Source: Hadesarchaea archaeon
GTDB taxonomy: Archaea; Hadarchaeota; Hadarchaeia; Hadarchaeales; Hadarchaeaceae
Length of the DNA stretch: 64,000 nucleotides
Direction: 5' to 3'
Assembly: GCA_029259175.1 (NCBI GenBank)
Contig: JAPDJH010000004.1
Location: 64,001-128,000, forward strand
Shown here piece by piece: positions 47,232 through 64,000 of this stretch (the first letter of the stretch is position 1; each line of letters starts with the position of its first letter). The notes under the pieces are model-generated. The model was not told the origin of the DNA and did no database searches. It was given only the letters and a program-made list of their open reading frames with translations. A program made the translations under genes and the position numbers.

Positions 47232-47335
47232 TGGCGCCGGGGGCGGGATTTGAACCCGCGAGGCGCAACGCGCCACAGGGTTTTCGCGGCACTGCCTTAG
47301 CAACCCTGCGCCCTACCTGGCTAGGCTACCCCGGC
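47232..47335 (-). tRNA. tRNA-Ser(GCT) with 16-nt canonical 37/38 intron (47282-47297), CCA encoded
   Basis: GCCGGGG acceptor, long variable arm, CAGGG-TT-GCT-A|intron|A-CCCTG with BHB motif. Confidence 0.95.
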
Positions 47336-63327: not shown

Positions 63328-63412
63328 CCGTGTTTAGGTTTCCGCACGTACCATATTATTCTTTTCAATTCCCATTATAGCATGGAGCGATGAGATCTTG
63401 AAGTTCAGCGGA

Positions 63413-63547
63413 ATGAAGTGTCCGAAGTGCCAAGTTGGTGTTTTGGAGCGGTGGACTGCGGGTGACGAGGAGGACGAGGAGGCTACGTGGACGGCGTACC
63501 GGTGTACCGCTTGCGATTATGTTCTGAAAATCAAGCATGTGGATTAA
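63413..63547 (+). CDS. 44-aa zinc-ribbon microprotein
   Basis: Manual translation MKCPKCQVGVLERWTAGDEEDEEATWTAYRCTACDYVLKIKHVD, two CxxC pairs. Confidence 0.65.
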   Translation: MKCPKCQVGVLERWTAGDEEDEEATWTAYRCTACDYVLKIKHVD

Positions 63548-63606
63548 AAATTCTCATTAAATTATCAAAACTTCGCAATCTTGTAAACGCCGCGGGTTCA
63601 GAAAAG

Positions 63607-63713
63607 TGCTTCCCGGGAAGCGAGAGCGCTTCTCGCTTCCTTCCGGGCGGGATTCGAACCCGCGGCGCGAGCTCGAGAGGCTCGCATGTTTGACCGGGCT
63701 ACACCACCGGAGC
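63607..63713 (-). tRNA. tRNA-Glu(CTC) with 32-nt non-canonical intron (63610-63641) at position 70/71
   Basis: GCTCCGG 5' strand, CGAGC-CTCTCGA-GCTCG anticodon arm; removing the BHB-defined intron restores CCGGAGC-A. Confidence 0.88.
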
Positions 63714-63900
63714 ACCAGAAAGTTATGATTTTCTCTACTCAAAAAAATAGCCCCTCTGTGAAAGGATCTCGATTGGTGCGATGAGGTTAATCCAAATTTT
63801 CCACTGTCCGAGAATACTCCGTGTAATCATCGAGAAGGTCGTGGTTAGGTGTCAGACCTGCACACAGCTCCGAACGAACCAATCAAAAAACAAAATTTTA

Positions 63901-63919
63901 ATACTTGTAAAACAAGTAT
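63901..63919. promoter_or_regulatory. ATACTTGT-N3-ACAAGTAT palindrome, putative antitoxin operator
   Basis: Perfect 8-bp inverted repeat 7 nt upstream of the AbrB-like start. Confidence 0.6.
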
Positions 63920-63926
63920 GATTTGT

Positions 63927-64000
63927 ATGAAAATAAAAATCGAAGGAGTCGTGAAAGTCTCGCCTAGAGGACAGATAGTAATTCCAAAAGAAATCAGGGA
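63927..64000 (+). CDS. AbrB/MazE-family antitoxin (truncated by window end)
   Basis: Manual translation MKIKIEGVVKVSPRGQIVIPKEIR. Confidence 0.8.
   Translation, partial: MKIKIEGVVKVSPRGQIVIPKEIR

Follow-up and report, generated by a model that had tools for sequence, protein, structure and literature searches.

A predicted relaxed intron three bases before the 3′ end of an archaeal tRNA-Glu(CTC) gene, accompanied by a complementary trailer

Results

The window analyzed here is a stretch of 64,000 nucleotides (nt) of Hadesarchaea archaeon DNA (assembly GCA_029259175.1, contig JAPDJH010000004.1, positions 64,001 to 128,000; G000:C2:64001-128000 in our numbering of genomes and contigs). The host genome, G000, measures 1.31 Mb in 23 contigs, has 53% G+C and is 91% complete. 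On the minus strand of the window lies a tRNA-Glu(CTC) gene that is interrupted in the 3′ strand of its acceptor stem: tRNA positions 1-70 are encoded at 63713-63642, an insert of 32 nt follows at 63641-63610, and the last three bases, GCA, are found at 63609-63607. We consider this locus to be, quite probably, a functional tRNA-Glu(CUC) gene with a relaxed intron between positions 70 and 71 that is spliced by the endonuclease EndA. The elements of the locus, all on the minus strand, are as follows.

63741-63750, minus strand: A+T-rich box, 28-37 nt 5′ of position 1; possible archaeal TATA element, by direct reading only
63642-63713, minus strand: exon 1 of tRNA-Glu(CTC), positions 1-70; 72 nt owing to extra D-loop bases; ends CCGGA
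63656-63667, minus strand: partner of the trailer, CGCCGCGGGTTC, made up of the variable loop, the 5′ strand of the T-stem and the first three T-loop bases; from fold and alignment
63644-63647, minus strand: exon strand of the central helix H, CCCG, positions 65-68; pairs with CGGG at 63615-63612
63641-63643, minus strand: 5′ bulge, consisting of G69, A70 and the first intron base; predicted cut after 63642
63610-63641, minus strand: intron of 32 nt; single copy in the genome, present in independent contigs
63616-63640, minus strand: intron hairpin h′, a perfect stem of 10 base pairs (bp) (63640-63631 with 63625-63616) with a 5-nt loop (63630-63626)
63612-63615, minus strand: intron strand of the central helix H, CGGG; invariant in alignment A1 (described below), but demanded by the filter
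63609-63611, minus strand: 3′ splice-site bases, two intron A's and G71; predicted cut after 63610; no adjacent closing helix
63607-63609, minus strand: exon 2, consisting of G71, C72 and the discriminator A73; from direct reading and same-genus comparison
63600-63606, minus strand: CTTTTCT, a U-rich spacer that separates exon 2 from the trailer helix, by direct reading; possible weak terminator
63588-63599, minus strand: trailer strand GAACCCGCGGCG, exact complement of 63656-63667 over 12 bp; starts seven bases after A73

Exon bases 63647-63644 pair with intron bases 63615-63612, giving the 4-bp central helix of an intron of the bulge-helix-bulge (BHB) type, and on the 5′ side a 3-nt bulge lies between this helix and the 10-bp hairpin that starts at 63640. 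EndA cuts after the second base of a bulge, and the parse of the canonical intron in the tRNA-Ser(GCT) gene of the window is consistent with this rule. With one cut behind base two of the 5′ bulge and the other two bases past the central helix, exactly 32 nt are removed. The 3′ strand and discriminator that result are identical to those of the uninterrupted genes in two genomes of the same genus (G001 and G003), all stems are intact and a canonical tRNA is restored. In a strict hBHBh′ motif the 3′ bulge is closed by an outer helix of at least 2 bp, but here only C72-G64 pairs and A73 faces C63; the next helix beyond the 3′ site in the fold is the one formed by the trailer, across an internal loop with sides of 7 and 11 nt. 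Because the 3′ site has one adjacent outer pair only, the motif belongs to the relaxed HBh′ form, not to the strict one. A first-pass annotation of this DNA, made from the letters alone, had described a BHB-type intron at 70/71 with a 3-nt last exon, a 4-bp central helix, a perfect 10-bp hairpin and two 3-nt bulges, cut in the same geometry as a canonical tRNA-Ser intron of the window. The helix and the hairpin are read directly from the minus strand, the spliced product equals the uninterrupted genes, and the tRNA-Ser intron does exist (gene at 47232-47335) with a cutting geometry that agrees; of the two bulges, the one at the 5′ site stands, while the supposed 3′ bulge at 63611-63609 is not closed by an outer helix and has to be given up.

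The minimum-energy folds of the precursor at 37, 60 and 80 °C all consist of the anticodon arm, a trailer helix of 12-13 bp, the central helix and the hairpin, and the central helix is also present in the RNAalifold consensus. RNAfold favours a register shifted by one pair, in which precursor G71 pairs in place of the first hairpin G, and the two registers compete.

Standard gene finders handle the locus poorly. ARAGORN reports a 77-nt tRNA-Glu(ctc) at 63638-63714 with both ends displaced, and the match of the Rfam tRNA model covers 63639-63713, scores 43.5 bits and flags the outer two pairs of the acceptor stem as non-standard. This is the lowest score among the 46 Rfam tRNA matches in the genome, and the uninterrupted orthologues in G001 and G003 reach 57.4 bits. 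Since such genes are under-scored or given wrong ends, a decoder that is essential by annotation can look defective; tRNAscan-SE 2.0, according to an excerpt of its description, adds 60 nt to candidates specifically so that introns close to the ends are not missed. The first-pass annotation had left room for a further Glu(CTC) gene elsewhere, and among the 46 matches the window copy is the sole one in this 91% complete genome; contig C3 has one Glu(TTC) gene, which is intact. The GCA of exon 2 is directly followed by CTTTTC and no CCA is encoded, which is ordinary here because CCA stands directly after the match in only 26 of the 46 tRNA genes.

The same architecture occurs in other archaea. 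Metagenome contigs of the Joint Genome Institute (JGI) were scanned once for the T-arm, bases 65-70 (position 65 being left free) and the first intron base, the sole fixed elements of the pattern. The scan returned 59 loci, and 33 of them fit the remaining architecture, that is, the hairpin, CGGG, two bases and GCA; L142, which has no hairpin, was dropped, leaving 32 loci with a hairpin, and a further locus (L165) is cut by a contig end. The 32 introns are 27-33 nt long and have hairpin stems of 5-11 bp with differing sequences, and the bases at their 3′ site are A, any base and G, the second-to-last intron base always being A. Position 65 is C in 33/33 of the architecture-fitting loci, though it was free in the pattern, and GCA is the last exon in all architecture-bearing loci, which was partly imposed by the filter. 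A matching 5′ strand, GCTCCGG, lies at most 200 nt away in 28 of the 33, many of them with one to three more introns. In L152, L173, L179, L183 and L195 we observed the T-arm, the 70/71 intron and the trailer, yet no matching 5′ acceptor strand within 200 nt upstream; these could be split tRNA genes or genes with a very long upstream intron. Only L138 comes from the species of the window (its neighbouring proteins are 79-98% identical), all other carriers being at most 62% identical at the protein level. L138 is a strain variant in which one hairpin base is changed and the pair is kept as G-U.

We collected 21 distinct sequences in an alignment, A1, chosen with a filter that requires CGGG and GCA. 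With the specified structure 91.0% of its cells are paired, compared with 83.9% in shuffles, none of 500 attaining as much, and no more than 54.5% after sliding the partners, and within the hairpin 94.6% of the cells are paired. Seven of the eight hairpin pairs have changed on both sides, and 0 to 1 of 500 shuffles reach the observed covariation measures, in a set of sequences that are related to each other and were selected by the filter. Without an input structure RNAalifold arrives at the same three helices. The central helix is invariant in A1, its intron strand having been fixed by the filter. Among reference genomes, the full pattern was found in 0/329 species representatives of the phylum of G058 and in 5/401 of the phylum of G059; the latter carry six such genes and make up the whole of families f35 (three genomes) and f39 (two genomes). 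The phylum of G059 is, as a guess, Thermoproteota-like, from a weak Snf7 match resembling that of a Sulfolobus control. Thus the rarity of the 70/71 site that the first-pass annotation implied does not hold, as the arrangement is widespread in public metagenomes and present in 5/401 genomes of another phylum, and the related introns with covarying hairpins that it proposed to look for were found in the 32 loci, with compensatory changes.

A relaxed intron close to the 3′ end is also carried by another tRNA of the Hadarchaeota. In this phylum, 13 of 30 tRNA-Asp(GTC) loci have an intron at 68/69 (genomes G006, G008, G011-G013, G016, G020, G024, G025, G029, G031, G034 and G035; loci L097-L105, L107, L113, L125 and L126), 16 have none and one is ambiguous. 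At least three different hairpin sequences, which covary, occur in several genera, and the outer helix is 2 bp, so that the motif is again relaxed. With 13 genomes carrying such an intron, relaxed introns of the 3′ acceptor strand are thus a conserved trait of Hadarchaeota, and to judge from these genes their enzymes evidently handle relaxed 3′-acceptor sites. The tRNA-Asp intron resembles that of the window in lying in the same strand of the acceptor stem in the same phylum, in having A as its first base and a hairpin, in the 4-nt strand that pairs with the exon just before the bulge, in the two bases that then precede the cut, and in its weak outer helix. It differs in the tRNA and the position, and in being found in 13 genomes, whereas the window intron is confined to one species of 66 Hadarchaeota. 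We know of no description of this tRNA-Asp intron. L125 and L126 have a D-arm intron besides the one at 68/69. A partial second copy of the 3′ half of tRNA-Asp, from the anticodon loop onward, was seen in L110 at ~2690-2790 (G017:C54) and at G010:C2:176811-176851; a partial tRNA-Asp copy ~1.2 kb downstream of an intron-less tRNA-Asp is the pattern of an element integrated in a tRNA gene.

The sequence after exon 2 is complementary to the tRNA body. Folded individually, 18 of 22 distinct sequences of the module (intron, last exon and trailer) have at least 7 trailer pairs, compared with means of 0.5-6.0 for shuffled trailers, and for 8 of the 22 the trailer pairing is individually at or below 0.05 against such shuffles. 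Changes on the trailer side are mostly transitions that keep G-U or U-G pairs, and between lineages the trailer differs in step with the variable loop. The z-scores from RNAduplex were weak, owing to long loops, when the entire tRNA body served as target, and target-restricted tests were used instead. For tRNA-Glu, with a 15-nt target and a 33-nt trailer, the longest trailer-target helix has a median of 10 in 27 module-bearing genes and of 6 in 22 intron-less Hadarchaeota genes; the Mann-Whitney p of 2.7e-6 for this comparison overstates the evidence because the sequences are related and were picked by the filter. For tRNA-Asp the medians are 10 and -25.4 kcal/mol in 12 intron-bearing genes versus 7.5 and -15.1 kcal/mol in 16 intron-less ones. 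The Asp helices target the 5′ strand of the T-stem or the leader together with the 5′ strand of the acceptor stem, and in the intron-less genes they fall at scattered places. The trailers of the intron-less Glu genes of G001 and G003 show no such complementarity. At the level of the genes, trailer complementarity is a new observation that goes with both the Glu 70/71 and the Asp 68/69 introns. Our literature search returned no text on a 70/71 intron or on a trailer helix, '70/71' not being a queryable term and absence from the literature not being proven by such a search.

Next to the substrate stand the enzymes. The genome has one EndA gene, encoding 178 amino acids, at G000:C4:82914-83447. 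Searches with PF01974, PF02778, NF007085, NF007086 and the protein itself found no second subunit and no fused three-unit protein; a second subunit could be missing from the assembly because the genome is 91% complete. A weak second PF01974 match (E = 0.3) falls in open reading frames that read like ribosomal proteins. The closest relatives of known structure are the M. kandleri enzyme 5x89 (E = 6e-51) and then the alpha4 enzyme of M. jannaschii, 1a79. The type of EndA, on which the first-pass annotation had wanted information, is thus that of a single gene collinear with the alpha4 enzyme of M. jannaschii. RtcB is encoded (a 609-bit match), as are an archaeal CCA-adding enzyme and RNase Z. 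An excerpt of Kaneta 2018 (PMC5829648) describes for Hadesarchaea an alpha4 EndA with an 'L3' loop and a marked disruption of tRNA genes. In our alignment, no 'L3' insertion relative to the M. jannaschii enzyme was seen in the EndA of the window organism. Two metagenome-assembled genomes of Hadarchaeota each have two full-length EndA loci (L046/L063 and L051/L064), 60-68% identical to the EndA of the window organism; these pairs may be paralogues or may come from mixed bins.

Within the Hadarchaeota, Glu(CTC) is uninterrupted in the same-genus genomes G001 and G003 and in G046 and G043 of another family, and all four genes finish with the strand that the window gene would acquire on loss of 63641-63610; in the same-genus G002 a contig end leaves no more than the first 25 nt. 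The order Arg(CCT), Glu(CTC), Leu(TAA) is common to the window and G003, and the two Glu(CTC) loci are orthologous because this order is kept. The first 50 nt of the gene are identical to the G001 and G003 orthologues (L002 and L003), whereas three bases of the 17-nt T-arm differ, the 49-65 pair among them; C65 of the window completes the central helix, and G65 stands in the intron-less genes of the genus. These T-arm differences fit either a replaced 3′ segment that carried intron and trailer, or co-adaptation. The 70/71 insert has no match in the 65 other Hadarchaeota species genomes, where the best matches are to the T-arm only. Because the module is confined to one species within the phylum and resembles modules of other phyla, its acquisition was probably recent. 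Several unrelated loci share 21-24 of the 32 intron bases with the window, and none of them can be named as the donor lineage. The genome holds no second copy of the intron, other matches being at most 15 nt long, and no remnant of a tRNA-Glu 3′ end such as an integrated element would leave behind; that introns protect against integration, which the first-pass annotation had suggested for this one, is an old general proposal by Randau and Soll, as quoted in a passage of PMC3218864. A 23-nt hairpin match beside tRNA-Ala in G037 (L133) was treated as chance, its per-genome E of 2.5e-4 being taken over 66 genomes.

In other genera of the phylum, Glu(CTC) genes have introns in the D-loop (G004 and G035), at an unusual anticodon-loop site (G032) and at the canonical site (G014, G024, G015 and G022); the loci in G004, G035, G032, G014, G024 and G015 are L091-L096. 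Such varied sites across genera point to repeated gains. In L128, at ~1480-1530 (G038:C9), there is an orphan T-arm-like segment in which ARAGORN finds no tRNA and which may stem from a tRNA gene that has been disrupted.

Discussion

From the structure of the gene and its conservation we infer cleavage, ligation and a role of the trailer, and the following order of events can be considered. Exon bases 65-68 would pair with the intron CGGG, with the 10-bp hairpin stacked on this central helix. The 5′ cut would fall within a 3-nt bulge of the normal kind, the 3′ cut two bases past the central helix in an open loop, so that EndA excises 32 nt and RtcB ligates A70 to G71, whereupon the full 7-bp acceptor stem could form. 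Trimming after A73 by RNase Z and completion of the 3′ end by the CCA-adding enzyme would follow splicing. The trailer, by pairing with the variable loop and the 5′ strand of the T-stem, would occupy the competitors for bases 61-70 and thereby leave the 3′ strands available to the splicing fold; its helix would tether the 3-nt last exon to the tRNA body until ligation. This decoy and tether function is put forward tentatively, its chances being at best even. A broader proposal, to which we give somewhat better than one chance in three in our own judgement, is that 3′-terminal introns form a transferable module of intron, last exon of 3-5 nt and decoy trailer, in which the trailer unmasks the splice motif, that the module has moved between phyla, and that a single EndA without specificity loops suffices for it.

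Other origins of the insert have to be weighed. Palindromic inserts can arise in short-read assemblies, and the genome in question, of 23 contigs, was assembled from a metagenome, so an artefact of assembly or binning that inserted a palindrome deserves consideration; the first-pass annotation had itself named this danger. Logan contigs from the DNA runs X2 (study P2) and X3 and X5 (study P1), however, cover the whole of 63353-63950 ungapped (0, 0 and 2 differences, respectively), none of the Logan contigs compared showed the gene without its intron (in run X9 no contig crosses the insert), and the JGI contig L138, with neighbouring proteins 79-98% identical, carries the one-base variant. These independent contigs contradict an artefact, which we regard as the least probable of all explanations, to a point where it can hardly be entertained. 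Nearly as improbable is that a chance hairpin or terminator-like structure, followed by GCA, stands after a 3′-truncated tRNA. A G+C-rich hairpin followed by T's does look like a terminator, and the fold of the gene without the trailer gains only modestly over shuffles (z = -1.9). But when the 60 nt after position 70 were shuffled and success was defined as any splice restoring GC and A73 whose central helix has 4 bp and whose hairpin has at least 4 bp, 40 of 400,000 shuffles (~1 in 10,000) gave a compatible arrangement; the hairpin of the window gene is 10 bp long. The arrangement also recurs, with hairpins that differ, in 32 loci and in six genes of five reference genomes.

A more serious alternative, though still an unlikely one, is that the gene is disabled or decaying: the module would have come, through recombination or transfer, from a lineage whose EndA has two subunits and broad specificity, the host EndA would process it poorly, and tRNA-Glu(UUC) would read GAG. 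Its Rfam score is the lowest of 46, the genome has one EndA gene without known specificity loops whereas the five other carriers have two, the intron is missing from 65 other Hadarchaeota genomes, and the difference in 3 of 17 T-arm bases next to 50 identical nt is the pattern of a replaced 3′ segment. On the other hand, every structural element is intact, the hairpin change in L138 preserves pairing as G-U, and the insert is unchanged in the contigs of the three further runs. There is no redundant Glu(CTC) copy in the genome and no degraded stem after removal of the insert, as would be seen with a pseudogene, and 13 Hadarchaeota genomes conserve the comparably relaxed Asp intron with covariation. 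The excerpt of Kaneta 2018 likewise ties the alpha4 EndA of Hadesarchaea to heavy disruption of tRNA genes.

The reading we prefer, a functional gene with a spliced relaxed intron, has several points against it. The sequencing runs listed for the locus include none of RNA. The 3′ site has the single adjacent outer pair C72-G64. The sequences behind both the trailer comparison and the covariation are related and filter-selected, as noted above, and the four T's at 63602-63605 (five in L138), which precede the trailer helix, could stop transcription early. By the textbook rule, EndA of the alpha4 and alpha′2 types cuts strict motifs only; broad specificity is the mark of the alpha-beta heterotetramer with its CSL and of epsilon2 with its ASL, which have a second, structural subunit or three fused units and a loop insertion with a conserved lysine. 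The single EndA gene of this genome encodes a protein collinear with the alpha4 enzyme 1a79; in pairwise alignments it has neither the 9-residue insertion of the A. pernix protein (3p1z_B) nor the 5-residue insertion of the ARMAN-2 protein (4fz2_A). All five other genomes with the 70/71 module have two EndA-family genes. Finally, since the intact tRNA-Glu(UUC) might read GAG, the Glu(CTC) gene is not provably essential.

Non-canonical BHB introns are already known, and the intron at 70/71 is a real and probably functional variant of them, as far as gene sequences can tell. The relaxed HBh′ class goes back to Marck and Grosjean 2003, as cited in passages of PMC4090602 and PMC6379350. The excerpted part of Hirata 2019 (PMC6379350) lists the acceptor stem among tRNA intron sites, and the intron positions given in a review excerpt run from 3/4 to 59/60, 70/71 not being among those listed there. 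Like other relaxed HBh′ introns of archaea, that of the window has a 4-bp helix and a 3-nt 5′ bulge, its removal restores the cloverleaf, and EndA and RtcB are encoded; unlike them, it leaves a last exon of three bases, is served by one EndA without CSL or the ARMAN-type insertion, and has a conserved trailer helix. A close case in a tRNA-Glu is the pre-tRNA-Glu(UUC) of Methanopyrus kandleri, which, according to the excerpt of Kaneta 2018 (PMC5829648), has a relaxed HBh′ intron and an EndA without CSL and ASL; there, in contrast to the window, the enzyme has alpha and beta subunits and the intron is in the D-loop. The nearest known analogue of the trailer would seem to be the complementary trailer and leader of split tRNA halves. 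In Nanoarchaeum equitans, as recounted in a passage on its split tRNAs (Randau 2005, PMC4090602), pairing outside the tRNA holds the pieces together and presents a relaxed BHB motif to EndA. The window gene differs in being a single transcript whose helper pairs with the tRNA body, and here the pairing is predicted from sequence.

Several features make the locus worth attention. With a last exon of just three bases, the gene puts the ability of EndA and RtcB to locate and retain their substrates to an extreme test, and the trailer complementarity, associated with two types of 3′-proximal intron and missing in intron-less orthologues, offers a concrete candidate answer. A host with one EndA gene and none of the known specificity loops is relevant to the long-standing rule by which the type of intron is tied to the architecture of EndA. 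The uneven spread, with one species of 66 in this phylum and whole small families elsewhere, provides a case for studying the gain of tRNA introns.

Other tRNA genes of the genome have introns too. The tRNA-Ser(GCT) gene of the window (47232-47335, minus strand) has a canonical intron of 16 nt, and ARAGORN reports the gene only with its intron option switched on. Outside the window, anticodon-loop introns of 50-58 nt are carried by tRNA(CAT) (G000:C5:67872-67995), tRNA-Trp (G000:C6:46907-47037) and tRNA-Asn (G000:C1:32376-32505). Motifs like box C and box D can be read in these three introns, which resemble known intron-encoded methylation guides.

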